Source of the DNA: Isurus oxyrinchus
Taxonomy: Eukaryota
NCBI GenBank assembly: GCA_026770705.1
Contig: JANJGN010000126.1
Coordinates: 434,001 to 498,000, forward strand
Length of the DNA stretch: 64,000 nucleotides
Reading direction: 5' to 3'
Shown: in pieces, positions 4,808-52,138 of the stretch
How the letters are laid out: each line of letters starts with the position of its first letter
Position numbering within the stretch: the first letter of the stretch is position 1
Made by a program: the position numbers and the translations under genes
The notes under the pieces: generated by a model
Told to the model about the DNA's origin: nothing
The model's database searches: none
Seen by the model: only the letters and a program-made list of their open reading frames with translations

Positions 4808-5441
4808 TGTAACAATCGCTGAGAACAAAGCAGAACGTGTTCCTAGCTTCTGAGGGAAATGCACGGATTACCGAAGGGCCTGCTGTTTGCCATTTACTAC
4901 CCCGTCCTTGCAGCTGTGGGCGTTCCAGCTAAAGTACGATTGTCAGTTACTCTTTACAGGAATTATTAATTAGATGTATTATTGTTCTCAGTTACAATTC
5001 CCGCTTCTTCATGGCGTATGATTCCCTTTTTCCCGTTAATGGAATATTTTCTCCCTTTACCAGGACATTTCGACTCCTTAACTGATGTAATTTCACCTAA
5101 TTAATGTCTCACTATATTTCTCGGCCTGCGTATCTCCTTTTGTCTGTTCATCTGTCCGAGGGATCTTTCATCTACCTGAGGGAGGATCCTTTGTTGTATT
5201 GTCTAATGATGTCTCCTTCTGAACTGGGTCTGGAGCTGTTTCTGTCCCCTAATGGTTCTTTCCTCATTGCCTACCGATTTCAGATGCATGGGGAGGAGGC
5301 AAGCCCCAAGTCTACCTCGGCCTGAAAGAGAATTGAAGCCGCGTTGCTGGTGTTTTATTTTTGTGAACCGCCTGACTTCAAGACAATTATGCTAACCGCC
5401 CCTTGTCAGTACGCTCTCAGAGTCTCAATGTAGTTCCATAT

Positions 5442-5535
5442 AGTTATTGACAGAGATAAAAACAAAAAAATTGCAGATGCTGGAAATCCAAAACAAAAAC
5501 AGAATTACCTGGAAAAACTCAGCAGTTATTGACAG
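5442..5535 (-). mobile_element. 70-bp 5'-truncated Penelope-derived insertion with 12-bp target-site duplication
   Basis: AGTTATTGACAG at 5442-5453 and 5524-5535 flanks 5454-5523, which is the reverse complement of the element 3' end seen at about 19345-19414. Confidence 0.75.
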
Positions 5536-6109
5536 CCCTTATCTGGGTGAATCATCCCAGAGATCATGTAGCTCTGCTGCGTGATTTGACATTTCGATTG
5601 CAGATGAATTGGTCCGCACAGTGCAATTGTAATGTAATTGTCGTATAAACGCTGTTATTGACAGCGAATTATCACGTTATTCTTGTGGTATAATTGTAAA
5701 CCCAATGCGTTTTTGGCACTGGCAGTGGCTGAGTATTTTCCAACAATTGATTCATTTATTATTATTCAACTGTTAACTTATTCCTGGCTAAAGGAATATG
5801 GGGTCCCTTTCCTTCAATTAAATTATTTGGCATTGAGTTGTTGACAGAAGAAACAATGTGCGTTGATACGTTATGAAATAATCAGTGTTTCTCTAAATGA
5901 AGTAATGGATTGCGACAGCAAAGATCAGGCCATAAGGCCCGCCATGGCAATGCGGGGCACTGTGCAAAACCAGTGCACGCGGTTCCATTCCCTCAAGATT
6001 CCCCTTTCCCTCTTTACATGTTTATACTCTCGGACATCCTATTATTATTGATCCCATTCTCTTCCCGTAGTCGCCAGCTGATGTGTTGCCCTTACTTCCC
6101 CTTATGCAC

Positions 6110-9100: not shown

Positions 9101-10110
9101 TCCAACCGTCTCCACTCTGAATTTCCTCTCGGGTTCTCATCCCATTGTCAACCCATTTTAATGTGTTCCCAACAACACTTGCATATCTTCCCGTGAGGAC
9201 ACTTGTCCCAGTCCTGTTAAGATGAAACCTCTCATTCTTTTGCCATTCCCACCTATCCCAGAACTGGCCCCAATGGCGAAGAAAGCTAAATCACTCCCTC
9301 CTACTCCATTTCTCCAGCTACGTGTTGAACTGCTCACTCTACCTATTCACATGGTCCCTAGTATCTGCCAATGGGAGTAATCCTGAGACGAAAGCTCCAT
9401 AAATTCTGCTTTCCGGGCCTCATCGCTTTTCCTACCTATGTTTTTTGTCCCAATGTGGGCCACGCCCTCAGCCTATTCACCCTACCCCAAAGCAGTGTTC
9501 TACAGCCGCTCTGTGACAGCTTTGACCATGTTCCCTAACCATGGAATTGTCTGCCACCATTGCACTTTTCCCCCTACCTCCCGTGCAGTTGAGCCAACTG
9601 TTGTGCCACAACCTGCCTCTTTCTTTAGTATTAAGGGGACCTACCTCAGTCACCAAAATCCAAAGTGTGGGAACAACTGGACAGCAAGGTGGCCTCCGGA
9701 GAATGCTGCTCATCCTACCTATCTACCTTAGATACTCTGGCGGTCACACATTCCCTCTCTGCCTTTGTAATTCATAGCTATTGCGTGACTGCCACTCTAA
9801 GCATGTTATCCATGTAATCATTAGGTTTGCGGATGCACCATGTTGACTCCAGCCAGCGCTCACGTTCCACATTCTAGAGCTGAGTTTTTGCAGCTGGTGA
9901 CACTTCCTGCATATGTAATCAAGGAGGGCATTTTCTGCCTGAACGACTTCCCACACCTGGCAGGATGTACATTCCACGTGACCAAGCTGCACCGACATAG
10001 CTTAAAATTTTTATGAGGTGTTTGCAACAGTGTGGTATCATATAATAATTCACCTGTCGCTCTCCAACCGCCTCCTCTGTGCTGAGTATGGACGGACCCA
10101 TATTTACTAG
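6110..10110 (-). mobile_element. Near full-length degenerate CR1 LINE inside the GPCR1 intron
   Basis: ORF1 zinc-finger-like VECTSCQVWE..YICRKCHQL (9744-9998), endonuclease region at about 8100-8950, RT/3' part LFKTLVTPHLSFCVKSWAPYL..VQRRFTRIIPG (6523-6726), and a CR1 3' UTR near 6110-6400. Confidence 0.85.
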
Positions 10111-11415: not shown

Positions 11416-11419
11416 TTCA

Positions 11420-11860: not shown

Positions 11861-14844
11861 ATAACAATCAGGAGAAGATCTCACTGTTGTTACTACACAA
11901 TCACGAACACATTCTCTAGAATTCAGAGGCGATAATATTTCCACCTCTACGCAGTGCCTTGGGTGTTTCTGAACCTGTGGAGGGACGAATCTGTTGGTTG
12001 TCCTGTCAGCTATCGTCTGAGATATAGTATGCAACATGTTAGGGATATTAGTTTTCCTATCTAATGATGTGGCTTGTTGGTTTCAATTTGGTTTCGATGC
12101 CTTCTTGCTCTCCATCATGTTTCATTCTCTAATCTTACATTTTCATCTCACTGGTTTGCCCAATTCTTTCAGTGGGATGATTAGTTCTACAAAGCAACAA
12201 GTGGCCACAGCGTAGCCGACATTTTCCAACTCAGCATCACCTATCAAACTAGGAATTCACATGGAATCCTGCGAAATGGAATTTTTTCCGTAGAGTCCAA
12301 ACAGCAATATTACTGTCCTCGATGATGTACACAGGCACATTTTCCATCTTTCACGCAAATTTTCTCTCTTCCTTTTACAGTAACTTGGCAGTGATTGTGA
12401 TTCTTCCTCGAAAACCATGCGGCCTATCCAAGTGTATTATTTGGTATTTGGTTTCCATGGCAGTGTCGGATCTCCTGGTTATTATCACTGCTGTGATATT
12501 AAACCGGGTCGCTGGAGTGTATTTCCCACTCAGTTTCCTCTCCTTCACGCCGGTTTGCAGTCTTCGTTCTGTACTGAATTCTGCAGCACTCAGCAGTTCT
12601 GTCTGGTTAACAGTCGCTTTTACGTTTGATCGATTTGTGGCCATTTGCTGCCAGAATCTGAAATGACAATATTGCACCGAGAAAACTGCAGCCACCGTGA
12701 TAGCAATCGTCTGCACACTGAGTTGTTTGATAGGTGCCTTTTTATATTTTATATATGAGCCCTTGTACATCATTAAAAACATCACTTGGTTCTGCAGCAT
12801 AAAATCAACATTTTATACGTCAATAGCATGGGCCATATATGACTGGATTCTCACCATTTTAACCCCATGTCTCCCATTCATTCTGATCTTATTGCTCAAT
12901 GCTCTGACCGTCAGACATATTCTAGTGGCCAATAGAGTTCGCAGGAGACTCCGAGCCCAGAGCAATGGAGAGAATCAGCGTGACCCAGAGATGGAGAAGC
13001 GGAGAAAGTCCATTGTTTTTCTCTTCACCATCTCGGGAAGTTTCATCCTGTTGTACTTATTATTGTTTATAACGCTAGTGTATATCCGAATTGCGAATGT
13101 TACTTATTTCTCAGGTTCAAATCTCAATGAATCAAATTTTATTCTCGAGGAAAGCAGATTCATGTTTCTGTTTTTGAGCTCTTGCATCAACCCGTTTATT
13201 TATGCTGGGGTACAGGGTAATTTCAGAGAGGCGTTAAAGAATGGCGTGAAATATCCACTCAGACTATTTGTAAGACTATTGAAATGATTAAAATAAAGGA
13301 TGAACTTTCATTGTATCCTACCCATTGTTGCTGCTCTTTGTGTCACAAACCTGTGCCATCTCCTAGGTAAGCAGTCATTCGCTTTAAGAAGCTTTCTCAT
13401 TGTGTGATATGAAAAACGGATCATCTAAAGGACATGTTGGTGAGGGCATCTGTCAGCTATGTTGACTGGATCGCTGGCGTAAGTTACAGAATGATGCAAC
13501 AGCACCGGTGCAATCCCCATCCCGGATACAACCCTACCTTGTTCATCATCGCTCCTTTCTTCAGCCACTCTAACGACTCCATTCCTCTCACATCCACACG
13601 TTCCAATCGAGCAGAACAAAATCCGTTGCAAACCGAAAATGCAAAGGCATGCAAACAATAATGAAGTAAATAATAACGAAAAGAACATCTCTATAAATTA
13701 TGTTACCTTCACAGCAGATTCTGCATTTGGACACATTGCATTTAGCACAATTTGAATGCCAAAGAAGTTTCTGATAAATAATAGCACATGCTCTCTATTT
13801 CTTAAGTTTTTATTGATACACATATGGTTCTGGAAAGCTCCACTTGTGGAGAGCTATATGAATCAAAGTGCCGGCACTACCTGTTCCTCCAAAGCAGGCC
13901 CCACATATGATTTGTTACGTATCAAATTGTTCATATTTTGTGGCCTACAAAATTACTGTTAACATGAGTGATATCTAATTTCTTTGCAGGAATCAGTGCT
14001 AACTGATTTCTCCGTGCCTGTAGTGAGCCTGTTCCATGGATTGAGAATTCATGCACGAAAACTTTGTTTTTACAAGTTGATTCAGGTTTCTCCCATTTAA
14101 GTGCAGAACGTGCCCTTTAGTTCTCCTGTTACGGGCAATGTGGCAAAACATGTGTTCTAATTTACATATTCCGTGGGATATTCTAACAATAAAAACATGA
14201 AGCATATCACTTCTGTTTAGAAATGAATGGGGGTCAGTAATTTTAGAAGGTAGGTTACATTTGTAGATGAAACAAAGTTGGTGTGGATGATAGTCTGCAA
14301 AGTTGAAAAGGATTAGCTGCAGGCGAATGTAACAACTTTACAATTGGCAAACACCAAGTGTCATTTTCAATATGCACATTCCCAATTTACGTAATCATTT
14401 CTCAAAATCCATTTCAAACCATCCCTTTAAATAATTCTATTGACACTCCACTGTTTGCACTCAAAAGCTTGAATATCCTGTGAGGTGTGGACCTGCATGA
14501 AATACTCGAGGCGGGGGTGACACCAGATTATATGAAGTGGGCGGATTAGGTCACAATGTTGTCTCAGTTTTGATCTTCCAATGCATTCCGAAATCTGATT
14601 AATTTAACTCGTTGCTGTCAATCGGCACATGCAGATCTCACTCGTTTGTCATCAAATGAATTTGTTGGCCTTCCATTGATGTGGGGTGTCGAATTGGACA
14701 AAATATTTTAAGTGGGATTACACCCATGAATTCCAGATCAGATTAACGAAATGCATAAATAACACTCTAATAAGTTTGGTTCTGAGTTTTTCCACAACTA
14801 CCTTAAATCTTTCTCTTTTTGCTTCACCCAAGTGATTTATTTTT

Positions 14845-19412: not shown

Positions 19413-19414
19413 CT

Positions 19415-21840: not shown

Positions 21841-21899
21841 TCCTACTCCAGGAAGAAATGTTTGTTTCTCAGTTTTGTAAATTTAAACTTGCTGAACTG

Positions 21900-24244: not shown

Positions 24245-25359
24245 TCTCCAAAACAGCTTGTATCCAGGAATATTTATCGCCCAGGCCTGCCCTCTTTGAG
24301 CCAAGCTTCTGTTATAGCCAAAATACCATAATTATATTTGTCAACCTGTGCCTGTAGTTCACCAATCTTATTAACCACACCCCGTGCATTCACATACATA
24401 CATATTAATCCTGATTTAGGCAGTTAAAATCTTTCCTCCTACACTGACCTCATCTAACGATTTACCATTACTATCTCTGGCACTATCACACTCTTCAAGT
24501 GTTCCATTTCCCGTGACAATACTGCCTGATATATCCTCCTTATCGATTCATGTTTACCTCTTCCTTCTGCAAGTTTTTCGCCTCTCCACGTCGAGATTAA
24601 ACCTATAGTTCCCGGTCCTGGTAATCTTGTTAAACCCTCCCCAACAACGCTGTTATATTTAAAATGGTTCCTTTGAAATGTTGTGGATTGCCTTAGCTGC
24701 ATAAGTGAAAGTTAACACACCTGTCAAAACGAGAGAACATGTTCCTCAGCAGGCTGTTGGTTGAGAATTATTTTGAAGCCTGCTCAGTGAGATCAGAGGT
24801 TTTGGGAAGTGTTCTGAAGAAGAGTCATGCAGACTCCAAACGATAACTCTGTCTTTCTCTCCACAGATGCTGTCAGACCTACTGAATTTTCCAGCAATGT
24901 TGTTTTTGTTTCAGATTTCCAGAATCCGCAGGGCTTTTCTTTTATCTTAAAACGCGTTGTTGGGGAGGGTTTAACAAGATTACCAGGACCGGGAACTATA
25001 GGTTTAATCTCGACGTGGAGAGGCGAAAAACTAGCAGAAAGAAGAGGTAAACATGAATCGATAAGGAGGATATATCAGGCAGTATTGTCATGGGAAATGG
25101 AACACTTGAAGAGTGTGATAGTGCCAGAGATAGTAATGGTAAATCGTTAGATGAGGTCAGTGTAGGAGGAAAGATTTTAAATGCCTAAATCAGGATTAAT
25201 ATGTATGTATGTGAATGCACGGGGTGTGGTTAATAAGATTGGTGAACTACAGGCACAGGTTGACAAATGTAATTATGGTATTTTGGCTATAACAGAAGCT
25301 TGGCTCAAAGAGGGCAGGCCTGGGCGATAAATATTCCTGGATACAAGCTGTTTTGGAGA
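24245..25359. repeat. 406-bp inverted repeat (24245-24650 / 24954-25359) with a 303-bp spacer
   Basis: The arms are reverse complements with about 5 mismatches by manual alignment; the ORF track shows near-identical peptides on opposite strands (24454-24702 - and 24827-25150 +). Confidence 0.95.
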
Positions 25360-28700: not shown

Positions 28701-31700
28701 GGAATATCAGAGACATATTTTTTCGTTAATATGTCTTTCAGGAAGGGCTAGAATATGCAAGATGTGAAGGGGTTAGCAGCAGGAAAATGAATGAATGAAT
28801 TGAATAAAAAAACTTAGAGCAGTCAGCCCACAGGAAGCTCCAAGATTAAAGAGTGAATAAGATAGAGTGAGTAGTTGGCAGCCTGGGGAAGCAATGGGGA
28901 AATGGAGCTGTGGATATGTGGTGTGGCTGTGGTGAAAGGAATGAATGTATCAGAGGATGCTTTGTGCATGTATTGTATCAGGATGACAAGATGTAGAAAA
29001 AAATAGTTTTCTGAAACTGACAATGCGAATCGAAGGACGGTACATGAACCAGGGGAATCCTTCCATACTGCAAATTGTGAGGTCATATTAGTATTTGGGG
29101 ACTCAGAATGCAGGATGCAAGAATGCAATTCACTACTATCTACGTTTGACATCTGTGGTATATTTCCTTCCTGATGCCTGTTTAAGGGGCATTATGGAGA
29201 AGGTGCAGAACGCTCTGTGTGTCGGGGAAGAATGTGCTGTTCATATCAGAACCAATTCCATAATGAGAAATATGCAGAGACCGTTTAAGTCGGAGTATAA
29301 GGAACTGAGGCGGTTACAATTCAAAATAAATAATTACTCAAGTACTCCTAATGCAACACAATAACGAGAGTAAAAATGGGCGTAGAAGGCAGATTAATAC
29401 ACGGTTGCAGGCATGATGCAACAGGGAGGGCTTGAGGTTCCTGAGACATTCGGATCAGCTGAAGAGTGGGAGGATAGGGCTCAAGGTTTATGGGTTACAA
29501 CTCAGAAGGCTGAACGCTCTCTTCGCAGGAAGTATAACTATGATAGTGTGGATGGAGTAACCTAATGAGGCACAGGGTGGAGAGCAACGTGTTAGATTAA
29601 GTAGAAAATGTAAAACAAGGTGAAGGCAGGAAGGAGGAGACAGTTAGATGAAAGCAACATACCGGGGTGCTGAAAATCTGAAATATAAACAGAAATTGCA
29701 GGAAATAAAAACTGAACAGTTCTGAGAAGAAATGTGGAGAAAGAAATCTGAATAAACGTTGGGAGTTGAATGACTCCTCTTTAGCAACATGGGAAATGAA
29801 GTTCCAAAGTATAACCATTGGACTCGAAACATTAGCCCTGGTGCTTTCAATATGCATGTTTCCAGATCCGCCATGTTTTTTTTTAACCCGCTAGCATTAG
29901 AAACAGCATAGCGTTTTGGGGATTTTAGAAAACACCACCATCTCTAACTTTACTTTGTCGTTCACATTTGCACATGTACAATGGGTCATTAAGCAGGCTG
30001 GGAACACATATAGCCAAGTGAGAACATTATCTGGTGTCAATATTTAAAATCGAGCTCAAAGAGAAGGAGGGTTCAATGCTTCATGTCCCAGGATTCAATT
30101 TATTCAGGAAATATTGAAAGAAAGGCAGTGTTTTTTTTTATTATTTAGGGCAATATTACAGTGTCGAAATGCAGAGGCAGCCATTTTAGATTGCTGTTCG
30201 GCAATTGTTTCTGATAAATGATTCAAAGCTGTCAAATGGCTGGTTGGTTAATGAGATAAACACGCCTTAAAGAAACGTATTCCATTTTAAACCAGCTTGA
30301 ACAGTTTCGAGATGCTGACTAGCCTGCATTCACCTCATCAATATCTCCTGAGCTGTGATTGAACAGTGCAAATAAATAATTTCAATTGGGAAATACGTAC
30401 ATATGAATTAGGGACACAAGTAGCCCCTTCAGCATCTCTGGTTTGGTCTAACTTTAAATAATGTCACAGCTGATGTGAGTGTGGCCTCAACTCCGCATTC
30501 TGTGTACCTCTCTCCTCCACCTGAGAACCTTTGACTCGCTGCTTAGTCAAGAATGCATCTCTCTCTACCTTAAAAACATTGAATGACCCTGCTTCAACTG
30601 CTCTCCACAGAAAAGAGTTTCAAACAGTCAGCGCCCTCCGAGAGAAAAAAAGGGGGAAAAATCTTCTCATCTCCATCTTAAACTCTCTCTCCTAGTTCTG
30701 GTCCCTCCCACAGAGGGAATCACAATTTCAGCATCCACCCTGTCAAGTCCCTTAAGGATCATATATGTTTCACGAAGCTCATCTCTCTATCTTCTAAACT
30801 CCAATGCTTACAGTCCCAGGCCTGAACAAACTGTCCTCATAAAATAAGCCTCACACCCCGTCCCAGCTATCAGTCGAATAAACATTTTACGAGAACATGT
30901 GTTACAGGTTTTCATCTACACTGTCAATCCAGAATCAGTCATGACATGAAGGAGCAGGAGACGGTGGAAGGAAAGCAAACTGAAGGGACCTGAAATATGA
31001 ATGGATTTTGTTCAAGACTTCAGAGACTGCTAGGTGAAGCAGGTCATGAGAAACTGAAAAAGTTTATTGAAATACAAGACAGAATCAGCGAAAGATCGAA
31101 TATTACATGTCACAAGCATCTTAAACAGAGCACGTGGATTATGCAGTAAACAAATAATAATCTGATGTAAATTAGATTATGTGTAGTGAAGTGCGGTGTC
31201 CATAAGTAACTTCCGAAATGATAACTCAATTGGCAAACCTAGTGTAGCAATGAGTGGGTAGTAAATTTCTTCTAAATCATAAATTGTCCAAAGTTTCTGG
31301 ACTTGAATTGGAAGGTTCCAGAAAATAATTTGACTGTTTGTGGTATCCAAAGATTATGGTTTGTAACTAAACACCGGTACTCACAGCAAAAATAATATCT
31401 ATTTATAATACATAGGAACTCCCTAGTGAGGCAATACAACTACACACTGGTTTACATTAATTACAGTCAAGGACCAAACAACGTGAATTCATGCTTTTAT
31501 CCCATGATTTTCTATTTTATAGTACATCAAAAATAACGTGCCATGTAAACAGAGTCAATTTAGCCAAAATGAATAAAATAACTTTAAAAAAGCAACTTTG
31601 AGAGACAAATTAGCTGAACAATGCAGTCTCACAGCAACTGGTCTGAATGGAACAGATTCATGTACATGATAATCAGTGTCCATGTGATATCATGTTACCA

Positions 31701-33125: not shown

Positions 33126-35228
33126 GCTATCCAACCCACTAATGATGTGGGAAATAATTGACACATTCTGGTGATATAGACAGACACATAACAGGTTACA
33201 CTCTTGGAGAAGTATTAAATTATCCATTTTGGTAGGTATAGTGAGAAAGGTAATATGGATTAAATGCGCAATATTATCAGGGGGCAAGAGCTCCTGAGTT
33301 TAAATGAAGCCAAAATTTGTAGGTCGCAGGATGAACAGAGATGGTTTCTCAGGACCATAGATTTCCTAATGGAGGAATACGTACAAGAGGAATGATTTTC
33401 CTCTAAGCCCTTGTCAAATACTGGGTGCTAGTCCAGATTTAGGGTTTTTGGTGTAATTAATATATTACGTGCTAAGTAAGAGATCGGCCATTTAGAGCTG
33501 AGGTGGCAATAAATGTTCACACTCAGAGAATTGTGAATCATTGGAAATCTCGACCGCAAATGGACTGTAGGTCTAGTCAAGAGAGAAATCGATAAATCAA
33601 AGAGAATCAAATAAATGTTGCAGGGAATTTCAGTCAATAATTTTAGTCATGATTCTAGCGAATGACAAATGAGCCTGGAGTTTCAAAATAACGTCATCTT
33701 GCTTCTGTATCTTATCTATTTTATCCATATGAATAGGATAGAAAAATATTAATTCTAACATTCTCTGCTCGTTTTCGTCGTCTAGAATAGAACAGAGATG
33801 GTGATATGTGGTATGTGTTTCATCCTGACGCCTTTGTGAGACATGTGACAAATATGGCAAACATTTCCTTTTATCGATGTGTTGTAATTTTAGTGAATGG
33901 TCTCCCTTTATGTTAAAATTATAAGTTATCTGACAATTTAATATGTTCAAGGCCATATGTTCGCATTCATGGTCATTACCCACACATAGAAAAATATTAC
34001 TGATAACAATTTCTCATATAGATTTTCAAAGATTTTATGCAGGTTTAAAATGTAATACCTTTGAAGGCAGGTATAGGATAAGCAAACTGCGTATGAAAAC
34101 ATATTTCATGACGTTTTAACATAATGCATTTTAAATTTATGGGTTTCAATATTATTGCCATTGTTTGTGATGTATCATTAAATTCGATTTTCCACCTAGT
34201 TGAAATCCGTCTCCAGTTGTTTCTGAGTGTTTTGATGAGCAAAAACGCATCATTAACAATGTTAACGGTGTGAATTTTAGAATAGCTCTGAAATTAGTCA
34301 TCGGTTTGGCACTGACATTTTTTTCTTCTGAGCTCAGGTGTAGTTTTGACGCTTTGAAAGTTTGAAGTTGCAGAAGGATTTTATTCATCCTTTACATTTA
34401 AAGAGCATTTCGGGAAACACAAGTTTCTGGAGAATTCCTATTACAGCTCCCTGGTTGAAGAGGAATGGCTGATTCGTACCTGCCCTAATATCAACTCTTT
34501 GACCGTTACTTTCTCTCTTATTACATGTTACGTGTTCCAGGACATTACTTCTCCCAGTTTAGCTGCGAAAAAAATCAGCTTTAGCAAGGATCACTGAAAA
34601 AACTTTGCCCTTGGCTGAACTGCCAATCTAATCATTCAACGGAAGACAATTAAGCGCCCAACAGGGACTCCCCGCATTTCTTATGTCACCTGCCTCGATG
34701 GAGGCATTTTCTGAAGGTATACCGTGTGGAGCTGAAGGTTACCACATAACCAAGAGAGATGAAGACTAGCTCATTCCTGACATATCTATAGTAAGCAAAG
34801 TGACCTCCCAAGCAGGGAAATCTGCCCTTGATTGAACTGATCTACCTTAACCGCTTAGAAATGCTTTCTATGAAAGTGTGCACTACTCACTGAAACTCAC
34901 GTCAACGACAAAGTTTTTTAAAAAATCACTATAATGTCAACCCAGTCCTTGCTGAAGTCTTTCTTTACTATTTCACTAGAGATGCACCAGAGAAATATGA
35001 CTTTCATGTTTGGATCGATAACTGGGAAATTAAGTCTAACTGATTCCACTTTATAAGCCATATTGGTACATTTGAGGCTTTGGTACACTTTGCAAATATT
35101 TATCTGAACTGCTATATTATATTTATCCTGTGACCCTGACAGCACACCGTATAGCGAGTGCTGTTCTTCTCACTACCAGGCTCCATAGTCGCAATGAGAG
35201 CTTACCTCCAAGTCACAAGGGCCTATCA

Positions 35229-35267
35229 AGTTACTGTATGATTGTCGGGCTGGTTCTAATCGCTGTG
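35229..35267 (-). other. 23-bp-spacer recombination signal sequence of the V pseudogene
   Basis: Minus strand: CACAGCG + 23 nt + ACAGTAACT, directly after YYCVLT. Confidence 0.85.
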
Positions 35268-35721
35268 AGCGTCAATACGCAGTAATACATAGGCTGCGTC
35301 AGAGAGCCGCAGTTTGGAGAATTTTAAGATAATGATGGTATTCGTAGTGACCAGTACAGACGGGAAAAGGCTTCGAGCAGAACGTGCTCTCATTTGGTAA
35401 CCAGCCGAAATCTTGCGTAGTAGAATTTGTAATTATTTGCCCGGATATTACAGGACCCAGAATAAGCTGAAGGAACACTTGGTACTGAAGTAGAAGCATT
35501 CTGAAGTTGTAATGCTTCCTTTTGTCCAAACCACTGTCAGGAGGCGTTGTGTCACAGAGATTTCCTGAGTCAGGCCAGCTTTAAATGGAAAATAAAATCA
35601 AAAGCTAACCCATTTTTAAAGTGCTGTTACGTTTGGTTCAAAATTACTTCCAAGAATACTTACCCGTGATAAGTGCTCCAAACACGGCACCGAAAAGGAG
35701 TAAGCGCGCTGCCGCTTTCAT
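35268..35721 (-). pseudogene. T-cell receptor alpha/delta V gene segment pseudogene (leader 35721-35664, intron 85 nt, V exon 35578-35268)
   Basis: Leader MKAAARLLLFGAVFGALIT, GTAAGT donor and AG acceptor in phase 1. V exon GLTQEISVTQ..SECFYFSTKCSFSLFWVL*YPGK*LQILLRK..LKFSKLRLSDAA/MYYCVLT, with TAA at 35450-35448 and 35435-35433 and a +1 frameshift at about 35291. Not visible in the ORF track. Confidence 0.88.
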
Positions 35722-38254
35722 TAACGTGTATTAACATAGTAACCTAGAGAAACTGGCACAAATTGACCTCTGAAACTAGCCGCATTGAGGATCGATGTTC
35801 CTTTCTTGTGTCCCCACTCATATGTCGTAATGTTCAATCTTTGCGGTTAAACAGGGCTACGAGTCTCCAGGCAATGAGCAAGCAAATGTTACAATCGCCC
35901 GAGCTGCAAGCATCAAAAATCCAAACAGGATAACGAATTTATTCAGAGGGAAGGAAGCAATATATTTTTACAGCATCAAATTTAGATTATTCGCTCTCGA
36001 CGCATGTGTGAACTTGTTGCAATGACTAACAGCCGGAAATTACGATTGAATTTCACCAAGTACATTGAAGTTCACCAACATATTATATATAACGTAGCGT
36101 GTCACAGAGCATGGCAGAAGTCATTAACTTGCAGGGAATATTTTGTAAATATTGAACCTTTGTTTTTTTGTTTGAGTTCCATTAGAGGCACCAGGATATT
36201 AGAGTCCGGCATGGATTTCACAAAAAATAAATAAGGGACATAATAAAAGGTTTCCCCTGTGGACAATTCTGTTGCATTATTTGTTAGCAACTGCTCATCA
36301 AAACGATACTTTGTATTTTACTTCCTTCTGTGACATTAACAAGCGCAATAATTTGCATAGGCAATGAAATGCTAACGATATCGCTTTTGCCACAGCAAAG
36401 CTTCCATGAGACGTAAAACACATTTGGGCATTTTTAACTGTTGAGGTTATGTTAAAACCAACTCGTGAGATGACGCTTCTCGCTGCTGCTGTAACCTGGG
36501 AGTGACAGTTGCGGTACAAGGTGGGACAGAACGAGACAGGTGCACTTCCGGCTCTAACACCGGCTCCTTATCTCCAACTGAGTGGTGAAAGAAGAAAAAG
36601 GCTGAATGGAAAGTAGGGCAATTCTATGAGACAAAATATTCATAGAAAATGATTCAACATTTGAAAACACTGGTGACACCACATGTTCACTCTCCAAGTA
36701 CATTTCTGGGGAACTGATTATAGAATTTTTTTTTTAAATAAAGGACATGAATTAGGATCAGAACAGACAAGGGGGTGGGGAATGTTTTCATGGAAAACAT
36801 GAAACTAAGGCTGCTCTTTACGTACTTTAAGTGTAAAGTTACGCTGTGCAACATCACCTCTTAGAGACCAGACAATGGCTTAGTAGCAATGTCACTAGAG
36901 TGATATCTGAGAGATTCAGGCTCATATTTGGAGGATGCATATTCAAATCCCACCACGGAAAGCTGGTAAAATTAACAAAATGAGAATTCATTTCAATGAT
37001 CGTGTCTGTGAATTGTCAGTGATTGTTCACTCATATCTTTCAGGGAAGGAAGTCTGTCACCCTTACCTGGTCTGGCCTCTATGTGACTCCAGATTGATTG
37101 ATAACTGCCCTTTGATGAAACACCCTAACAAGCCATTCAGCTCAGTGACATTTAGGAATGGACAGCTTACGCAGGTCTTGCCAGCGATGCCGACATCCTA
37201 TGAAACAAATAAAATAAATTTAGGAAGCACGTCAGGAAACTTTAGCCCAGCAAGGTCCCAAAAAGCAGCAATGTGATCCTGATGATATCACCCCTTTTTA
37301 TTATATTGGTTGAAAATAGATGTTCACCAACAGATCAGGCAGATCTTTAGTTTCCTCCCTTCCATCCTACTCACCTTCCTAACTTCATCCTTCCTCTCCC
37401 CTTCCTGATTTCGTTCTTCCATTCCAGCATTCCTATCTCCATTCCTCCCATCGAAATTCTTCAATATGTAATGTGAAGTTTTCACTGTCACAACTGAACG
37501 TTGCAGCCCACAACTGATACACCACAACTGTTCTGTTATTGAGCAGAATCCGTGTGACTTTAACACTGTCTCTTCCTGCGCACACAGATATACCGCGGAG
37601 TACCAAGTTACAGACTTGTGAATATCAAATGCAGTTTGCCATTTTATACAATAGGTATTGATGTTGAATCTGCAGGCCGCGTGTTCGCTGTCAAATGGTG
37701 GGATGAGCCGCATTTGCATTAAACGAAATCAAAAATAAAAATACATCTAAAAACCTCAACTTTTCTGACAGCATCTGCTGGGAGGAACACAGTTATTGTT
37801 TCGAGTCCGCATGACTCTTCAACAGAACGTGCCTGCTGTCCGAATAAACGCATGCAAATAGTTATAGTTTCTTCATCTTTGTCACTTCCCAATGTTGACA
37901 ACATATTCCACTATTAAAGTCATGTTCAAACGGAGTCTGCAGCTCTGCCGGCATGAAGTATTAATTCAGGGCACTGGGAGACCTGCAATGCCCTTCTTGA
38001 AATATGCCATCATTTATGTGTAACGGAGGCAGCAAACGGTGCTTCAGTACAATACATTCGAAAGATCTCAATGTTCTACACCGAAACGCCAGTCTACATT
38101 AAAAACGCAATCTCCGGACTGGGACTTTAAATAACATTTTCTGATTCTGAGGCCAGAGTGCTACCACTGATCCACAAATCTGTAAAGGAATAACAGCAGT
38201 GCGACGGCTGATTGAAGCAGGGAATTCAGAGAATTCACAACAACTGGAGCTGAT

Positions 38255-38293
38255 AGTTTTTGTACCAGTGGTAAGGATTTATGTAACGTGGTG
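38255..38293 (-). other. Recombination signal sequence of the open V segment (non-canonical heptamer)
   Basis: Minus strand: CACCACG + 23 nt + ACAAAAACT; the nonamer matches consensus at 8/9, the heptamer keeps only CAC and the last G. Confidence 0.75.
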
Positions 38294-39154
38294 CTTCATA
38301 GCCGCGCAGTAATACACGGCTGAGTCAGAGAGCTGGGTGTCTGTGATCTTCAAAGGGATGTTTGTGTTGCTCCTATCCTGTACGGCTGAAAAGCGCTTTG
38401 CAAAAGCTGGTGCATTCTCTTCATTCCCAGCCGTGTGTCTGAGCAGCACATACTGAAGGCTTTTTCCCGAGTACTGTACGTACCAGCATAGGTAAGCAGC
38501 TGTGTATGTCGCTGGGTAGATACATGACAACACTGCAGTATCTCCTTCACTCACTGCTACAATTGAGGGTGTTTGGGAAAGTCTCTCCTGTTGGCTGTAT
38601 TCTGGAAAACAATAACAGAATGTTATCAAGGCAACTTTCAGATTTTTTTTTCATTTGGACGAAATAGGCTTTCCAGTGCACACGCAAACGCGCACACGCA
38701 CGGGCTCACGTTAAATCATTCCCTTCAATACGACGGTTGACTGCATTTCATGTGTGAACAACAACAGCCAAAAACAGGGAGCTTCAGCGATTTCACCCCT
38801 CAGTTAACTGATCCCAGGCAATCATCGGTGCAATTTCCTTCTGGCTGTGTTCAGCCAAGGCTACTGTTTCTGCAGGAAGTAGAGAAGCCCTTCTCCGGCC
38901 CGCTGAGACAGTGACAGGTCAGCTTGTGGCTAATGTAGATACTGTACAGACACTCACTGACCAGTGAGCGAAGCCGAGGAAGCTGACCTCATCAATGGAG
39001 TGAACAAAGATTGGAGGAAAAATAACACTACAATTAACAAATTAAAGCGTTACAATCGCATGAAATACTTACTTGGTTGAACATTTATGAGGAAAAGGAA
39101 AACTTTGACGAATATTATTCTTGTCCAGGAGACACACTGGCGATCAGAAGACAT
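38294..39154 (-). CDS. T-cell receptor alpha/delta V gene segment, open frame (leader exon 39154-39073, V exon 38601-38294)
   Basis: V exon YSQQERLSQTPSIVAVSEGDTAVLSCIYPATYTAAYLCWYVQYSGKSLQYVL..RFSA..LKITDTQLSDSAVYYCAAMK has the canonical Cys, Trp and YYC. TTTTCCAG acceptor; GTAAGTA donor after MSSDRQCVSWTRIIFVKVFLFLINVQP in matching phase 1; RSS downstream. The leader assignment is less certain than the V exon. Confidence 0.9.
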
Positions 39155-39619
39155 GTTGTATCCTGTGTCACAATTCGATGCTGTACGGAAGTATGTGATG
39201 TATATTCAGGACATTTGTTAGATCCTACCACCACGTTTAGCTGCACATGTGTATGAGTCCGAGGTTTATAAACAACACTCAAATCGCAAATGTAAGTTTT
39301 CTCAGTTTGATGTCTTCCAGCAGCCGATAGGTGCGATGCTGGCAGGGGTGGGGCAGACAAACAAAGGCAACGAATCAAAATAAAAAAAATTCCAAATTCA
39401 TATCCATAGCCCTGCCTCAATATCGAGGTACATCAATGGCATTTGTTGGTTAAAAGACACAATTGATCTTTAATATTTATTTGACTCCAATAAATGCTGT
39501 TCCTTACTGGACCTAAATTATGTGTTGAACACCAATATAACATTGGTGTCATGGACACTCATATAACAATCAACACTGCTCATTGTTATTCAATGCAAAA
39601 AGAATACGCGTTGGTTTTT

Positions 39620-39880
39620 GTTTGGACAGAACTTGAGTATTTCTGAAAAAGAGACAGGTCTAAGCTTATCGCCCTGCACTCATCAGGAAACTCACAACAA
39701 TAACAATACATGGGAGGGGGGAGCACAATTTACACTGTATGTGAGGAGAATGATGATTGGTTGGCAAGTGGCATTTCCCTGAATAATGCACCACCTGTGG
39801 CGACTGACAGTTAACAGCCAAGAATTGTTTGAAATTTAAGCCAGGTAGCTTGACCCTGATTGGTTCAGGCTGACTCGTTT
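39620..39880 (-). mobile_element. 3' repeat of a second Penelope-like family, with hammerhead-like motif at 39658-39689
   Basis: Reverse complement of 60860-61090. Minus strand reads TTC-CTGATGA-GT-gcagg-GC-GATA-AGCTT-A-GAC. Confidence 0.6.
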
Positions 39881-41369
39881 CTCATGATGATGAAGAAGAA
39901 TAAGACGAAGAAGATGAAGACGATATTGCTGATCTGACTGGTTTGCTCTCCGGAGGTCCGGCAAAGACTGTGTAGGTCGAATGCCTCCCTTCCCGCCCCC
40001 ACCACACCCCACCCCCCACACCCCGCCACCACCTCGCCCCCTCCCCCCTTTCCGCCTCCGTGCTGTAATGAGACTGGTGAACCTGGTTGCACCAATCTAT
40101 GGCAGAGCTATCCAGCCCTAGTTAGGTGGACCAAAACTGAGCACAGTTCTCCAAATGTGTTGTTAGCAAAATCTTACATATTTGCAGCAAAGCTTCGTTT
40201 CACTCCTTATCCAAACCTCTTGCGATGGCTTCACAAACACTGTTGATTAGTCTTTGTTATTAACCAGTTTGAACTGAGAAACAAAAACATAAAGACACAT
40301 TGTTCTCCTGCATATTTTTGGCTCATCCCTTTCTCTCTGTACATATTTAATTCGAAGAATGACAGAGAGCTATAGATACAAAATGGCACTATGTTCCTCT
40401 GAGTACTGAATCAAAAGTGAGGGATGGATTTAGTCTTCATTGTATTGAATCGGAGCTAATCCATTGCACAGCTATGAATTCCATGTCAGAGCAATAATCG
40501 ATCCTAGACAAGGGAAAGGGAAACAGGCATAGAAACTGAAAATTAGTGGAAAGAAGCTGTACATTAATTTCACAATTCCATCTCATTATTCATTTATAGT
40601 TACTGGCAGACAGCAACTTCTGCAATTATATAAAGTCCTTCAATAGTTCAGAGTGTCCCAGGTTGCTTAACAGATAAGGGCGTATTTTTGAAGACTAGTC
40701 ATTCCTTTAATCTAGTGATAGAGTTAAAGGAAAATACAGAATCTGTCTAAATAACTTCTTAAGAAAGACATATAAACGTGGAATTTCTCTTTCCATATAT
40801 TTACGATGCTTGATGAAGATCTAGGAGTTGTAAAGGTCTTTTGAATTTTCAACCTCTGCTCTGTTAAAACTTCACTCGTACAGCATGAAATTCATAGAAA
40901 TTTGGAGCAAAGAATCAGGCCTCTAAGCATTCTCCAATCAATAAGATGTTTAATTTTTTATGTTCTAAAAGCGCAAGGAGAAGTTAAGGAAGTTAAACAA
41001 TTGTAATGAAATCCTTTGAATGATTATAATTGCTGCAAGCTGGAGGGGTCGTTGGATACCCGCTTCTTAGTTTATCGTCAGAGAAACCAAGGGATCTATG
41101 ATCAAAGGTAATTAACAGCTCTCAGTTCCTCTCAGGCAGCGTCAATAATGTTTCCTGATCCAGTGAATCTTGTCATCTGCTATTTGATGTCATAGTTTAA
41201 CCGTAGACTGCACAACAATGAACGAAAACTTATGTGACACATTCCCACCTCCTTGTATAGAAAGAGCCAGATTAAAATGGCCTGGTATCAGGGGAGAGTG
41301 TGGCAGAGATAAACAGACTCTTGGTCAAAAAAAAAATGTTGAAGCTCTGAACTATAATAAAACAGGCAG

Positions 41370-45606: not shown

Positions 45607-45618
45607 TGACGTCACGTG
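45607..45618. promoter_or_regulatory. Overlapping CRE (TGACGTCA) and E-box (CACGTG) upstream of GPCR gene 2
   Basis: TGACGTCACGTG about 270 nt upstream of the exon-1 ATG; TATAAA at 45843-45848. Motif match only. Confidence 0.35.
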
Positions 45619-45881
45619 CTTACTTTGAATAAATTATCTTGACAGGAATGCCATGTTGTTTTTACTATATTTTTTCCATGCAAAGTGATGGGATGAAAGG
45701 GTTAAGGCATCTTGTTTGTTAAGTGACTGTAATTAATGCCAGCCAGTGTATTGTTTAATTGAATCACCAGGACTCTCCTCCGCCTATATCTAGGCAATGT
45801 TTTCAATGTGTATATCAATGTTTGACAGAGTGCGGTCTCCAGTATAAACAGCGATCATTGGATCTCACAGCAAATGCGATC

Positions 45882-48800
45882 ATGTTCTTTGAAATTCCAA
45901 CTGAACTTCGGATTCTGTGGGTGATTTAGGATTTACAAAGGATTTACTATCCGCTCCTCTCTGCTGTTGGCATTCTGGTGAGTGATTATTTTAGAAACTT
46001 ATTTTATAAAACATCTTTCACCATGTCTGTTATCCTTGTCCTTAATGTGAGTTAATTAATTTTATTCTCTTTAATTCTTGTGTCCTGTGATGTGTAATGC
46101 CCTGTGCTTCTGTGAAGTAGCATTTCAGCAGTTGCTGATTCCCTGTTCACAGTTCAATGGACCATTTGTACATCTGAAGACTTACTTCAAGTGATTTTTT
46201 TTTCTTCAGAATTTGGCTGGTTAAATATTTTATGAAATAAATATTGGTGATGAATTATAGCTATTGAACAGCTGCAGTCTGCTGTTTAGACTGAACCCCA
46301 ATATCTGAGCAGAAATATGTTGCGCAGGTATTGGTTTTGCGATGCGATGGAGATAGTAATTTGCACTGATCTGTGGAAATTAGGGCAGACAAGAACGAGG
46401 GAAGATCTCACATATGACTCAGCTCCAGGCAACTTCCGGTCCACCATCTCCCGCTTTGCCTAACATTCACCAAATTTAGATATTTAGGAGAGGATTTGAA
46501 ATGTAATAATTGTTCAACAATACTTGCTCCCCTCACCAACAATTGGCTCCGTTCCCATTTCTGTCCACAGACCTAATTTCCTTCCCTTGACTCTGAATGA
46601 CTTTATTCAGAGCTGCAAATCATTATCCCCCCTCCCAGTTTTTTTATTTTCAATATGCGTTCTTGGGAAATGAATGCCTGTGACAAAGTTCCACTTATTA
46701 CCCATCCGGAGGTGAGCTGACAAGCTGGTGCTGAGTCTTCTTGCTGAGCTGAAGTATTCCCTCTGCTGACTGTGCTCCTACCTGCTGTTAGGGAATTCCG
46801 GAACTCTGACGAAGGGAGAGGTTTCTGTTCCAAGTCAGGATGGTGCGTTAGAGAAGGTGAATCTTGCAGCATTGCACACTTTCTGAATTTTGCTGTGCTG
46901 GTACGTGCTGGCGAAGTAGCCGCGGTGTTTTGTTGTAGTTGATTCTGTAGACATTCTCCCTGCATCCACAGAGGTGAAGGCAGAGAAATATCAAGTTTAA
47001 TGATCGACGGTCACTGATGGAAAATCTAATGCATTTTTGAAGATGATTCTGCTTATTGTGCGTTGCTCTGACAACCATACCGATGAGTAGTGAGCGGTCC
47101 ATCGTCTTTCAGGCGTGAAGTTGATTGATTTGGTGGGAGGCGTGGTGTCGGGGGGTGGGCTGTGGGGTGGCTACTGGAGGGGACTGGTTCAGCGCACTCC
47201 CACCAAACTGCTGAACACCGAACATCCTCACCATGTTCTTCATTGGCTGATATAGTTAATTGTTCCTTCTGCTTAGCCATTTTCTTATGCTGCTCCATTC
47301 TGTAGTCATCACCCCTGCCCTTGTAAATAAACAACCCCTGATGCCTCAGTCCTTGTAAGCAAAAAAACACACCATCTCTAAGCTCTCTTTCCTCTACAAA
47401 TTCCTTGTGCCTGCTGCTACCCCCCAAGTTTCTGCCCCATCTTCCAGGGACACCATGCTTAAATCCTTCTAACCATTTTTCTACCTTGTTACAACTCTTA
47501 CACCGTCCTTACCAAAGGTGCAAATTATATCTTATGTGACTCTGTTTATGTCAAACTACCTCTCTTTCCTCTTCTCGACATGTCTGCAGCCTTTGGCATG
47601 GGTGACCACAATGAAATATTAAGAGTTTCATGCTCTGAATTTGCTCCTAAATCCTTTGTCCTCGCTACAAACTTATCATCCTTTAAGATAATTCTTAAAA
47701 TGTGTTCTTTATTGTTATTCACCCTAAGCCAGCCTTCTTTGACCTGATCTCCATTTCGCTCTTGGTGTAATTTCCCTCTATCTGAAGCTGGGGTCTGGAG
47801 TACATTGCGGTGAATTTAATACTGACTGTATCATTAACCGGAGCTGCCGATGCCAACAGTGGTGAATATTGAAATGTCCGCCGGTCTGCATATCAGGACC
47901 CATCTGAAATCTTGATCCAGGAGCATGCATGCTAATTTCCCGTGAACTTCAAACTTCTGATGGGCAGATTTGTACTGCCCAGGCCCCTCTAACAATGATT
48001 CCAACACTGACTTCAGTTTTGGACTGTTGTGCCTGTTGTGCGACAGATGCTTGCCCTAGTATTTTCCCACTATTAATTTCTAGCTTGTGTCAGTGAATAA
48101 CTTTCAAGCGAAGTCCATGCACGCCCAACCCCCACCTACAGACCTCCCACATTCATCCCACACACAGCAACCCACAACACCCCCAACTACTGACCTCAGG
48201 AAACCTAATCTGAATCGATTGCCTTCCCCTCGACCCACTTGCACAGCTCTCACTAGCCATCGCCCGTCCATTCAACCCCCAACTGACTGCAAAGCACGTT
48301 AACTACTCACCCATTCCCATCCCAACTACTAACCACCCGCCATCTACGCACCTCATACACACCTCATCTCCCCCACCCCGCTACATAGGCAAGAAAAACA
48401 AGCTGCAAGGGTGGGAAAAGATAGGGCTTTAATTACATTTGCAATCAGCGCTGATCATCCGAGTATCACCACCAAATGGGAGGCCAGGACCATTAATTTT
48501 ATGAATTATCTCACGTATTAATTTACACATTCATCAAAGCCCTGTGTTAAAATTGCACCAGAATCTTCAGTTTCCCTGAGATAATAACACAGACGAGTTT
48601 CATTCTATCCTCATCCAGCGTTTCAACAGGCGAGAAACAAGTAAAAATTGTAAATGTTCATAACTTGGGTGCTCGGGTACACAAACTAGAGAAAGCTAAC
48701 ATGCAATATGTTTTATTATTATCCGTTCATGGGAAATGGCTGCGTTGGCTGGGCCAGCATTTATTACCCATCACTAGTTGCCCTTGTGAAGGTGGTGATG

Positions 48801-51800
48801 AGCTGCCTTCTTGAACTACTACAGTCTTCGGCGTGTAGGTGCACCCAGAGTGCTGTTCTGAAGGGAATTCCAGGATTTTCGCCAGCAACAGTGAAGGAAC
48901 GGCGATATATTTCCAAGTCAGAATGGTGAGTGACTTGAAGGGGAACTTCCTTTTGGTGGTGTTCATATCTGTCTGCTCCCCTTCTCCTTCTAGATGGTAG
49001 TGGTCGGGGTTTTGAACGTGCAGCCGAAGGAGCCTTGGTGAGTTCCTGCAGCGCATCTTGTAGATGGCACCCACAGCTGCAACTATGCAACAGTGGTGGA
49101 GTGTGTAAATATTTTTGGAAGTGCTGCCAATCCAGCGAGGTGCATTGCCCTGAATGGTGTCAAGCTTCTTGAGCGTTCTGGGAGCTGCACCCATCCAAGC
49201 AAGCGAGGAGCATTCCACTACACTCCTGACTTGTGCCTTGCAGATGGTGGACAGGCTTTGGAGGTGTGGAGGTGAGTTACGCGTCGCACTATCCCTAGCC
49301 TCTAATCTGTTGTTGTAGCCATAGTATTTGTATGGCTCGTTCAGTGCTGTTTCTGGTCAATGGTAAACCCCAGGATTTGATAGTGGGGGATTCAGTGATG
49401 TTAATGCCGTTGAATGACAAAGGACGATGGTTGGGTTCTCCCTTGTTGGAGATGGTCATTGCCTGACACTTGAGCAGTGCGCAAGATACTTGCCACATGT
49501 CAGCGCAAGCCTGGTAATTGTCCAGCTCTTGCTGCATTTGAACATGGGCTGCTTCAGTACCTGAGGAGTCATTAATGGTGCTGAACATTGTGAAATCGTT
49601 AGTGAACATCCCACTACTGACTGTGTGATGGAAGGAAGGTCATTGATGAAGCAGCTGAAGATGGTTGGGCCGAGGACAGTACACTGAAGGAATGCTGCAG
49701 TGAAGTCCTAGAGCTGAGATGACCGACCCCCAACAAACACAACCATCTTCCTTTCTGCTGGGTAGTGTTCGAAGCAGCAGAGATTTCCCCCCTGATTCCC
49801 ACTGACTCCAGGTTTGCTAGGGACCCTTGATGCTACACTCTGCCAAATGTTGCCTTGATGCCAAGGGGAGCCGCTCTCATCTCCCCCTGGGAGTTCAGCT
49901 CTTTTGTCCATGTTTGAAGCAAAGCTGTAATGAGGTTAGGATGCAGCAATATAAAACGTGAATAGGATAATAAATGGCAGTGTTCCCTGTATTCGAGTAA
50001 GCAACTTTTGATAGAATTATGCATGTGATTGGCGAGAAAACATATGGATTAATGTGCAGAGTTTTGGCCTCCTTGCCTAAGGAAAAATATACTTAACTAA
50101 TCAATCAATCAAATTAGATGTGCATTTTCTTAAATTTAGAAGATGGGTGATTATCTCATCGAGTCATAGAAAATCATTTAGTGTCCTCATAGGATAGATG
50201 CTGAGAGAATGTTTCCCTAAGGTGGGGAGTCCAGAACTCGATTCCTGAGATAAGATGTTGGCCATTTGGAATTGAGATGAAGAGAATCTTCTTTACTCAG
50301 AAAGTGGAGAAACTTTGGAATGATCAACTCTCGAGGGCTGTTGGTCGGTAGATCTTTGTGCTCTAAGGCATCAAGGTAAATGGGGATAGTTTTGAAAGTA
50401 GAGGTCGAAGAATGGCCACGGGCTTTGTGAACGTTAGACTTGGACAAAGGGAAATATGGCTTGCTCTTGCTCCTAACTCTTGCATTCTTATGTAACAACC
50501 TAAATTTCCAACCACTGGCCCATTTAATTCCTGGCCCAAAACACGGACATCCGATCCATTGCTAAACACTCTCCTGCTTGCCAGCCTGAATTTTGGGTGC
50601 TGTCACTCTCTGCTGTTCCTTCGTGTTGACCAATATCCAGCTCTGATTCAATCTCTAATTTATTTTCTTCAGTTTAGCGATCCATTTACCTCCCTGTTCT
50701 TTATTTCTTTTCGAGAGTCTGTTTGTTACTGGGATACAGTCTAAGGGTTCATTGTGCCTTTTGGCGAAGGCAATAATTATCAGAAAGGCACATTTGGACA
50801 TCCTGATTTGAAAGACAATTTCTGAATTCAAATCTGTATTTACTTCTTTACACAACCTTAATGTTCCATTCAAATGTCTTCTAAGAAAATGAACCATTTT
50901 CCGTCAGTACAAATCACAGCCCATCCTATATATTGTTGTGATACAGTTTGCAGCAAATTCATGTGATATTGAGCATGACGAGTAATGGGGTGAGTGATTT
51001 TCACTCCGAATTCCATGAATAATGTAGGGAAGTGGCGGTGGGACCTGCTGCAGGATTTGGTTTCCTGCTACAACAGGATGGTGTTTAACTCAAAATACTC
51101 CCTCCTGCGTAAAGCTCAAACACTGGTGAAATAATTAGATTCTGACCTTGGATAACTCTGTTCAAATGTAACTCTATCAGTCTGTAACAGTTGCTCTGAG
51201 TTAAACAAGAACGTTCCTGCCTTTCTCTGCCTTACAGTGAATATACTGACTATTGTGACCCAGTCTCGGGGAAGGTGCGGTCTCTCAAAATGTGTTTCCC
51301 TTTACCTGGTGTCCATGGCAACCGCGGATCTACTGGTCGTTATCCTTGATCTCATATTCAGGCACATTGCTATTCGTTACTCGGCTCAGTTTCAGTTCAT
51401 GTGGAGGTTTCAAGTGTATAATATCCATGCAGTCCTGCTGTATGCAGCCACAGATTGTTCTGTCTGGTTCACAGTCTCTTTCACCTTTGATAGATTTCTG
51501 GCTATTTGTTCCCAGAAGTTGAAAACAAAATATTGCACCGAGCGTACGGCGGCTGTGGTTCTCGGAACAATGAGTCTGCTATTCTGTGTGAAGGACACTT
51601 TCTGGTACTTTATGTATGAAGGTCAATATTGGCTTTCCAACGCTCCTTGGTTTTGCACATTAGTGACGGATGCTGAATTCTCATCAATGTGGGCAGCAAT
51701 CGAATGTCTTCTTTATATTTTAAACCATTTACGCCATTTGTTTTGATTTTGATGTTGAACGCTTTAACAGTCAGATATATTTTAGTGTCGAGCAGAGCCC

Positions 51801-52138
51801 GCAGGAGACTCCGGGCTCACTGCAGTGGGGAGAGACCCAGGGACCCACAGATGGAGAAACGCAGGAAATCCATCATTTTTCTGTTTGCTATATCGGGGAA
51901 TTTTATCTTGTTGTGGGTAGTTTTTATGATACATTCTGTTTGTAATAGGCTATATTTGTTAGATGCTATTCCTGTATACCTTCTTAGGTTTGTGCAGGAA
52001 CTGGGATTTATATTTCAGCTCCTGAGTTGTTGCACCAACATGGCCATTTATGCAGTGACCCAGACTCAATTCAGAAATGAGCTGAAGAATGTGGTGAAAT
52101 ATCCCTTTTCTGTAATTGTTAAATTTATTAAACAGTGA
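45882..52138 (+). pseudogene. GPR139-like: GPR139-like class A GPCR pseudogene 2 (exon 1 about 45882-45977, exon 2 51238-52138)
   Basis: Exon 1 MFFEIPTELRILWVI*DLQRIYYPLLSAVGI with a GTGAGT donor. Exon 2 after cttacag: NILTIV..CGLSKCVSLYLVSMATADLLV..FTFDRFLAIC..PFVLILMLNALTVRYI..SCCTNMAIYAVTQTQFR. Lesions: TAG at 45927-45929, 1-nt loss before the donor (ATT CTG versus expected ATT CCT G), 1-nt frameshift at about 51724. Confidence 0.88.
48720..49940 (-). mobile_element. LINE (CR1/L2 group) RT and 3' end; related 3' pieces at about 46660-47000 (-) and 63040-63400 (+)
   Basis: ALLQTWTKELNSQGEMR..IKATFGRV, MFTNDFTMF (decayed FADD), MECSSLAWMGAAPRTLKKLDTIQ; 3' tail shared with the SINE copies. 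Confidence 0.85.

Follow-up and report, generated by a model that had tools for sequence, protein, structure and literature searches.

Introduction

In sharks, the immunoglobulin heavy-chain (IgH) genes are organised in miniclusters which, according to PMC2435157, lie at least 120 kb apart, each with its V, D, D and J segments within 2 kb and 6 kb from C-mu-1. The same source describes nurse shark IgH rearrangement as taking place within these miniloci; of 97 events, one may be an exception. Variable (V) exons of T cell receptor (TCR) type have already been published between IgH clusters (PMC12227049), and in tetrapods the TCR alpha/delta locus is flanked by olfactory receptor genes, as described in PMC3457774. 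Here we analyse a stretch of 64,000 nucleotides from Isurus oxyrinchus (contig JANJGN010000126.1, termed C126; G000:C126:434001-498000), called the window, in which two V segments of TCR alpha/delta type, termed V1 and V2, lie between two G protein-coupled receptor (GPCR) genes, termed GPCR1 and GPCR2. The window is probably a decayed copy of an IgM-GPCR-V block that is repeated about 30-fold, and the V pair is likely to have been carried along as a passenger of segmental duplication.

Results

The V pair is part of a duplicated block

The window contains four genes, in the order GPCR1 (plus strand), V2 (minus strand), V1 (minus strand) and GPCR2 (plus strand). The V segments and the block in which they reside are the following, in window positions:

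39154-39073, minus strand: V1 leader exon, 27 codons, phase 1, with a GT donor
38601-38294, minus strand: V1 exon, open, TCR alpha/delta-type V (Pfam V-set, E 1e-16)
38293-38255, minus strand: V1 recombination signal sequence (RSS) with a 23-base spacer, fitting the consensus rules for such signals at 8/9 nonamer and 4/7 heptamer positions
35721-35664, minus strand: V2 leader exon
35578-35268, minus strand: V2 exon, a TCR alpha/delta-type pseudogene with two in-frame stops and a frameshift before the second Cys
35267-35229, minus strand: V2 RSS with a 23-base spacer
33133..40258, no strand assigned: block of about 7 kb with both V segments, the only unique part in common with the oldest copy (C26:5.96 Mb)

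This layout bears out an earlier note on the window, which had described two minus-strand V segments, both with leader and 23-spacer RSS, flanked by two plus-strand GPCR paralogues. The window has no D, J or C segment, as the note had also found, and 0 J-like matches under criteria that yield 88 on contig C242. The parts need qualification, however. Both V segments are present and V1 is open, but V2 is a pseudogene; and while both GPCRs are present as 7tm_1 genes, both are broken in the window copy and, with a mutual identity of 45-51%, they therefore belong to different subfamilies.

The leader and V exon of V1 are separated by an intron of 471 bases. The encoded domain has both cysteines as well as the WY-Q and YYC motifs and terminates ahead of J, and the joined leader and V frame stays open into the RSS, where it stops after four codons. 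Within the window, the V1 RSS is the sole site at which CAC and a nonamer with at most one mismatch occur at 23-base spacing, compared with a mean of 0.14 in 50 mononucleotide shuffles. The best protein matches of V1 are TRAV-like. In a quick tree of 97 columns V1 falls into a 54-row clade (approximate likelihood-ratio support, SH-aLRT, 90), which holds all named TRAV/DV rows except one and includes VNAR-like rows too, with TRBV and IgH-like V outside. A shark orthologue was not found by word-based and full representative protein searches, the best of the 254 proteins retrieved being 46% identical; the libraries searched are poor in germline V segments, and the result therefore says nothing on lineage restriction.

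At the protein level V1 has 30 matches at 88-100% amino acid identity on 11 contigs, the next best being at most 51% identical. At the DNA level a 4.8 kb stretch with the V pair matches 30 places at 86-100% identity, 29 of which were read. The frameshift of V2 is identical in 29/29 rows read, and V2 was dead before the amplification. The neighbours of the V pair are copied with it, as near-identical GPCR copies at fixed spacing: GPCR2 is found 10-15 kb 5' of V1 on the opposite strand in 24/30 copies and GPCR1 20-26 kb 3' of V1, also on the opposite strand, in 21/30; both are near the V pair in 16/30 and at least one in 29/30. Segmental duplications are defined as blocks of more than 1 kb with at least 90% identity, non-coding DNA included, in constant order, and the copies fit this definition. 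Ten copies reside on one contig and 8 on another, and ten copies are a safe lower bound.

The block extends beyond the window. C38:9.02-9.15 Mb is colinear with C126:438-314 kb from GPCR1 through an IgM cluster (110 of 130 kb compared), and the IgM cluster of C38 is intact, with VH, D1, D2, JH and four C exons. Among the matches listed, at least 7/30 copies have, on their own strand, an IgH C exon 132-185 kb to the 3' side. The block also contains a tandem array, with repeat units of about 54 bases, in the part between the GPCRs and IgM (C126:355.6-362 kb; C38:9.09-9.107 Mb).

In the tree of copies, the window copy branches off as the sister of a young clade that comprises 17 copies. It is 95.6% identical to its nearest copy, most nearest neighbours among the copies being 98-99% identical. 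The oldest copy, C26:5.96 Mb, shares the 7 kb V block only and has a third V and different GPCR neighbours. This third V, which has an RSS, adjoins the V pair at C26:5955690-5955917 and is absent from the stretch of C126 that was read. A DNA run from another organism carries basal alleles at 40 sites (40 of 202 differences listed), 29-31 of which are shared with the window, C49 and C26 copies and at most 16 with young copies. This pattern is a hint of a recent expansion that is limited to the lineage.

IgH clusters surround the block and the TCR core lies on another contig

We read 664 of the 1429 kb of C126 (234-898 kb). This stretch contains 15 GPR139-like GPCR loci, most of them broken, and no TCR J or C; the window pair is its only TCR-type V. 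Two IgH clusters, labelled from their organisation and PDB matches, lie to either side: IgM at 325-338 kb (minus strand), 135 kb 3' of V1, and IgNAR at 837-855 kb (plus strand), 365 kb 5' of V1. IgM and IgNAR miniclusters are thus linked to TCR alpha/delta-type V on C126, as in the elasmobranch antigen-receptor complex. The edge of a compact TCR alpha/delta translocon, with a contiguous V array and D-J-C and no IgH between, is not what is found. In the C126 IgM cluster the VH is frameshifted; D1 and D2 are fused (337400-337450) with G-rich bases between them and about 395 bases missing relative to the C38 sister, an apparent germline D-D join.

The TCR core is found on C242, where one D with 12/23 signals is followed by 7 J, a C exon, 81 J and a second C exon; the two C exons were called delta and alpha from gene order, the PDB match of the first being weak. 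C-alpha, on C242 with 81 J-alpha, is single in the assembly. It was located by the J-RSS pattern, since the Pfam TCR-alpha-C model PF09291 gave nothing real as a finder (best E 0.73). Directly upstream of D-delta, at C242:581-585 kb, are IgH-like V segments with 23-spacer RSS, which we take to be TCR-delta-associated Ig-like V. C-delta has a second copy at C26:29.90 Mb. It belongs to a second TCR delta cassette (C26:29.90-29.94 Mb) with an IgH-like V, a D with 12/23 signals, 5 J found and a C-delta 85% identical to that of C242; a J-alpha array was not found in the 40 kb behind it.

On C26, IgNAR-type C exons are found at 0.69 Mb and the V1 copy at 5.96 Mb, related GPCRs extend as far as 12.5 Mb, and a V/IgH array spans 23-40 Mb; the 110 kb sampled from this array showed no GPCR. 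This order agrees with the stingray order in table S1 of PMC12227049. On a further contig, at C2:2.25-2.30 Mb, V exons continue into J-like sequence without an RSS, resembling germline-joined light chains, one of them in an open frame of 2078 residues.

The GPCR genes are under purifying selection

The GPCR features are the following, in window positions:

4859..4928, plus strand: GPCR1 exon 1, 23 codons, phase 1, with donor CT instead of GT
12381..13287, plus strand: GPCR1 exon 2 (7tm_1), a pseudogene in the window copy, where the acceptor has lost one base and 12664-12666 is a stop
45882..45977, plus strand: GPCR2 exon 1, with an in-frame stop and a 1-base loss ahead of the donor
51238..52138, plus strand: GPCR2 exon 2 (7tm_1, GPR139-like), with a frameshift near 51725; pseudogene in the window copy
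about 31230-31326, minus strand: solitary exon 1 remnant of a third GPCR, lacking start codon and donor

By their 7tm_1 domain and their nearest named family the two predicted window GPCRs are GPR139-like class A receptors. Their nearest clusters in the Atlas bear the name 'probable G-protein coupled receptor 139' (score 0.97), and human GPR139 aligns over its full length but weakly (E 6e-4). Both are two-exon genes with three lesions each in the window copy. The donor is GT in 11/11 GPCR1 sister copies read and exon 1 of GPCR2 is open in 10/10, so that exon 1 is intact in 21/21 GPCR copies read, all sampled from copies with an open exon 2. Exon 2 itself is open at 18/30 loci for GPCR2 and at 17/30 for GPCR1, or 16 without one locus that has lost a base at the acceptor. 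The family comprises hundreds of loci in the genome (6145 and 6236 first-look candidates, 150 scored each), which contrasts with the scarcity of GPCRs in cartilaginous fishes reported in PMC8455134. Elsewhere in the window, 24245-25359 is an inverted repeat with 406-base arms of 98.8% identity and 303 bases between them, around a short interspersed repeat.

Across copies the GPCRs are under purifying selection, which for V1 is not seen in the ratio of replacement to synonymous change (omega). Omega is below 1 for GPCR1 (0.50, 24 loci, p 1e-8) and for GPCR2 (0.69, 30 loci, p 0.007). For V1 it is 1.30 in 28 rows, a value that does not differ from 1 (p 0.32), and 0.5 is rejected (p 0.0002). The V1 changes are spread over the codon positions as 31/25/31, and among the fully readable copies 7/28 carry stops.

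A V1 copy is spliced in one RNA-type contig

A single 263-base contig, from one of the three RNA-type runs compared with a sister copy, has the V1 leader joined to the V exon at the predicted GT-AG, a joint that is absent from the DNA run compared with the same V1 copy. The RNA status of the runs is the tool's guess, and neither the absence of RNA-type data from those listed for V1 nor the lack of V1 exon cover in the other 2/3 RNA-type runs carries weight on expression. At two sites the spliced contig is without the basal alleles; it agrees with the young clade, though no sampled copy is identical to it. Somatic hypermutation was considered for its 8 differences and rejected, as their positions are not listed and at least three fit germline variants. 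The contig ends about 120 bases short of the V end, before CDR3 (the third complementarity-determining region), and germline and rearranged V1 transcripts are therefore indistinguishable. The run that holds it matches C-alpha with 0 differences in 262 bases. All four runs compared with the last J-alpha and C-alpha hold C-alpha, repeats having swamped the remaining signal.

Discussion

The V segments have likely spread as passengers, because their block lies among IgH clusters and on another contig than the TCR J genes. The process would have started from the 7 kb V block common to all copies, in which the V2 frameshift predates their split. This block presumably moved out of the TCR V array and into the array of GPCRs by which IgH miniclusters are separated. 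There it would have become part of a duplicated unit of about 160-175 kb, GPCR2-V1-V2-GPCR1-three more GPCRs-IgM, seen on two contigs and presumed for the rest, although many block copies are shorter than that. Unequal crossing-over may have been the driver, and the genes under selection would be the GPCR (or IgM) genes, not V1. The V1 copies would still be transcribed and spliced, as one contig suggests, likely giving germline transcripts, and joining to J would probably be rare or never occur.

Several points weigh against this reading. The exon is open in 21/28 fully readable copies, and by pairwise distances, with which we compared deep and shallow constraint, it diverges by 0.046 in 10 deep pairs compared with 0.083-0.096 in the background and 0.087 in V2. 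This halved divergence is equal at synonymous and replacement sites. V1 has 87 changes, the minimum over 111 overlapping non-coding windows being 94, and this count is not significantly under that of V2 (p 0.12). In the young clade (136 pairs, which are not independent) the proportion of replacement differences (0.009) is below that of synonymous ones (0.020), and the other organism's DNA run differs from a V1 copy at 2/273 exon and 20/344 intron bases. The exon's conservation could be explained by exon-limited gene conversion, past selection or chance. A young-clade V1 is, moreover, spliced in a run in which C-alpha sequence is present too. The linkage of C126 to C26 and C242, which would place them on the same chromosome, comes from gene sets shared with C26 and not from an assembly join. 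Finally, alternative haplotypes may account for part of the 30 copies, in view of cross-contig pairs that are 99.5-99.8% identical.

These points bear on the explanation that V1 constitutes a functional family of distal TCR alpha/delta V, which would join J-alpha or D-delta across megabases by deletion or inversion and whose dosage was raised by the amplification. Most copies do combine an open frame, canonical splice sites and a 23-spacer RSS; there is the spliced transcript, the V1 exon is more conserved than its flanks, and white shark TCR V exons are dispersed over 9 Mb among IgM clusters according to table S1 of PMC12227049. We nevertheless consider it unlikely, given an omega that is not below 1, a non-consensus heptamer, stops in a quarter of the copies (7/28), no rearranged protein above 46% identity among the 254 retrieved, and the 24 Mb that separate a V1 copy from the nearest C-delta on its contig. 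Joining could also take place closer by. The V1 RSS faces the D of the IgM cluster in a deletional, 12/23-compatible orientation, and the earlier idea that V(D)J deletion removes GPCR genes has for this reason a concrete candidate, with IgM instead of TCR J as partner. V1 would then be joined to the D-JH of the IgM cluster that lies, on its own strand, 133-135 kb downstream; the product would be a TCR-V/IgM chimera, and four GPCR loci would be lost. The signals are so arranged on both C126 and C38, co-duplication has kept the geometry in at least 7/30 copies, and the event would mirror the trans-rearrangement of IgH V to TCR delta that PMC12227049 describes as common in sharks. It is, however, very unlikely: no V1 junction was seen, nurse shark B cells recombine IgH over long distances rarely or not at all by the account of PMC2435157, and, among the matches listed, many copies have no IgH C exon within 200 kb. 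Duplication alone accounts for the geometry. Taken more broadly, a use of the amplified V1, its 23-spacer RSS joining either the co-duplicated IgM D (133-135 kb) or a far J-alpha to yield chimeric receptors and somatic deletion of GPR139-like genes in lymphocytes, seems to us improbable.

A stand-alone V domain, for which VpreB is the model, can be imagined as well: V1 would not rearrange and would be secreted from a germline transcript, as might be read from a leader and V that are open into the RSS and then stop, and from a spliced transcript in which no junction is seen. Yet any germline V reads open into its RSS likewise, the RSS is kept and omega shows no selection on the V1 protein, which makes this explanation scarcely credible. 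That copy number and arrangement are assembly artefacts, due to uncollapsed haplotypes or misjoins, is suggested by the near-identical cross-contig pairs and by small contigs that repeat V and C matches of C26. It is highly improbable, since single contigs hold 10 and 8 copies, most nearest neighbours are only 98-99% identical and the window copy stands at 95.6%, C-alpha is single, and the colinearity is long with diverged sequence.

Seen from the duplication by which the V pair probably spread, the earlier note's ideas fare differently. Its notion that V and GPCR genes evolve together by birth and death is upheld by their co-duplication, with GPCR1 or GPCR2 beside the V pair in 29/30 places, and its alternative of an orphon V cluster describes the pair well, which is an orphon-like group within a GPCR array. 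In a coarse way the GPCR array is V-distal of the TCR alpha/delta region, by the C26 order and the stingray order of PMC12227049 table S1. That the window marks the edge of the TCR locus is not supported: the neighbours are IgM and IgNAR, the only C-alpha is on another contig (C242), and on C26 a distance of 17 Mb separates the V1 copy from the main V array and one of 24 Mb from the nearest C-delta. The removal of GPCR genes through V(D)J recombination in T cells found no support, there being no junction among the sequences examined. Misassembly, an outcome named as refuting, is unlikely, as the region is colinear with an independent contig (C38) at 85-97% identity.

For this genome, the analysis reveals what the gaps of at least 120 kb between shark IgH miniclusters contain. 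It suggests that cluster number grows via joint copying of IgM, orphan GPCRs and TCR V segments, and offers a mechanism by which TCR V exons could have come to lie between IgH clusters, as has been published without an explanation. With about 20 open V1 copies that are nearly identical and lie next to IgM in a known geometry, there is also a natural test both of the distance limit of V-J joining and of the joining of a TCR V to IgH D-J. For annotation, duplicated V segments of this kind inflate TCR V counts.

Comparison with known systems

Human orphon V segments reside in segmental duplications, where they have leader and RSS, are stranded from J and C and have been multiplied. The shark V pair is alike in having leader and RSS, in lying away from J and C and in its multiplication by segmental duplication. 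It differs in that it is likely on the same chromosome as its parent locus and lies beside IgH D-J segments. As in the flank of the tetrapod TCR alpha/delta locus described in PMC3457774, a large class A GPCR family stands beside TCR V genes; here, in contrast to the olfactory receptors, it is GPR139-like, interleaved with IgH clusters and distant from J and C, and we found no evidence that the two arrangements are homologous. GPR139/GPR142 and the GPR210 group are treated as single genes in PMC6504862, the text of which has 0 mentions of sharks, as opposed to hundreds of loci in this shark.

Another close system is the elasmobranch antigen-receptor complex of IgM, IgW, IgNAR and TCR alpha/delta (PMC12227049). 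There, too, TCR alpha/delta-type V lie between IgH clusters, and in the stingray order of table S1 IgNAR and IgM clusters are V-distal to the TCR D-J-C core. What differs is that the main text of PMC12227049 makes no mention of GPCR, G protein or orphon and that its table S1 lists Ig, TCR and marker genes only; neither the co-duplication of a V-GPCR-IgM block nor a V pair at 30 places is found in these parts of the source. The open-access literature searched likewise gave no description of GPCR arrays or V-GPCR co-duplication in the shark IgH/TCR region. Orphon V and birth-and-death by segmental duplication are already known, although the description of this region is itself recent, and what appears to be new is the GPCR filling between clusters and the co-duplication of the block. 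Unlike in the amplification of shark IgH miniclusters as set out in PMC2435157, the spacer between clusters here consists of GPCR genes and TCR V and is copied together with the cluster.

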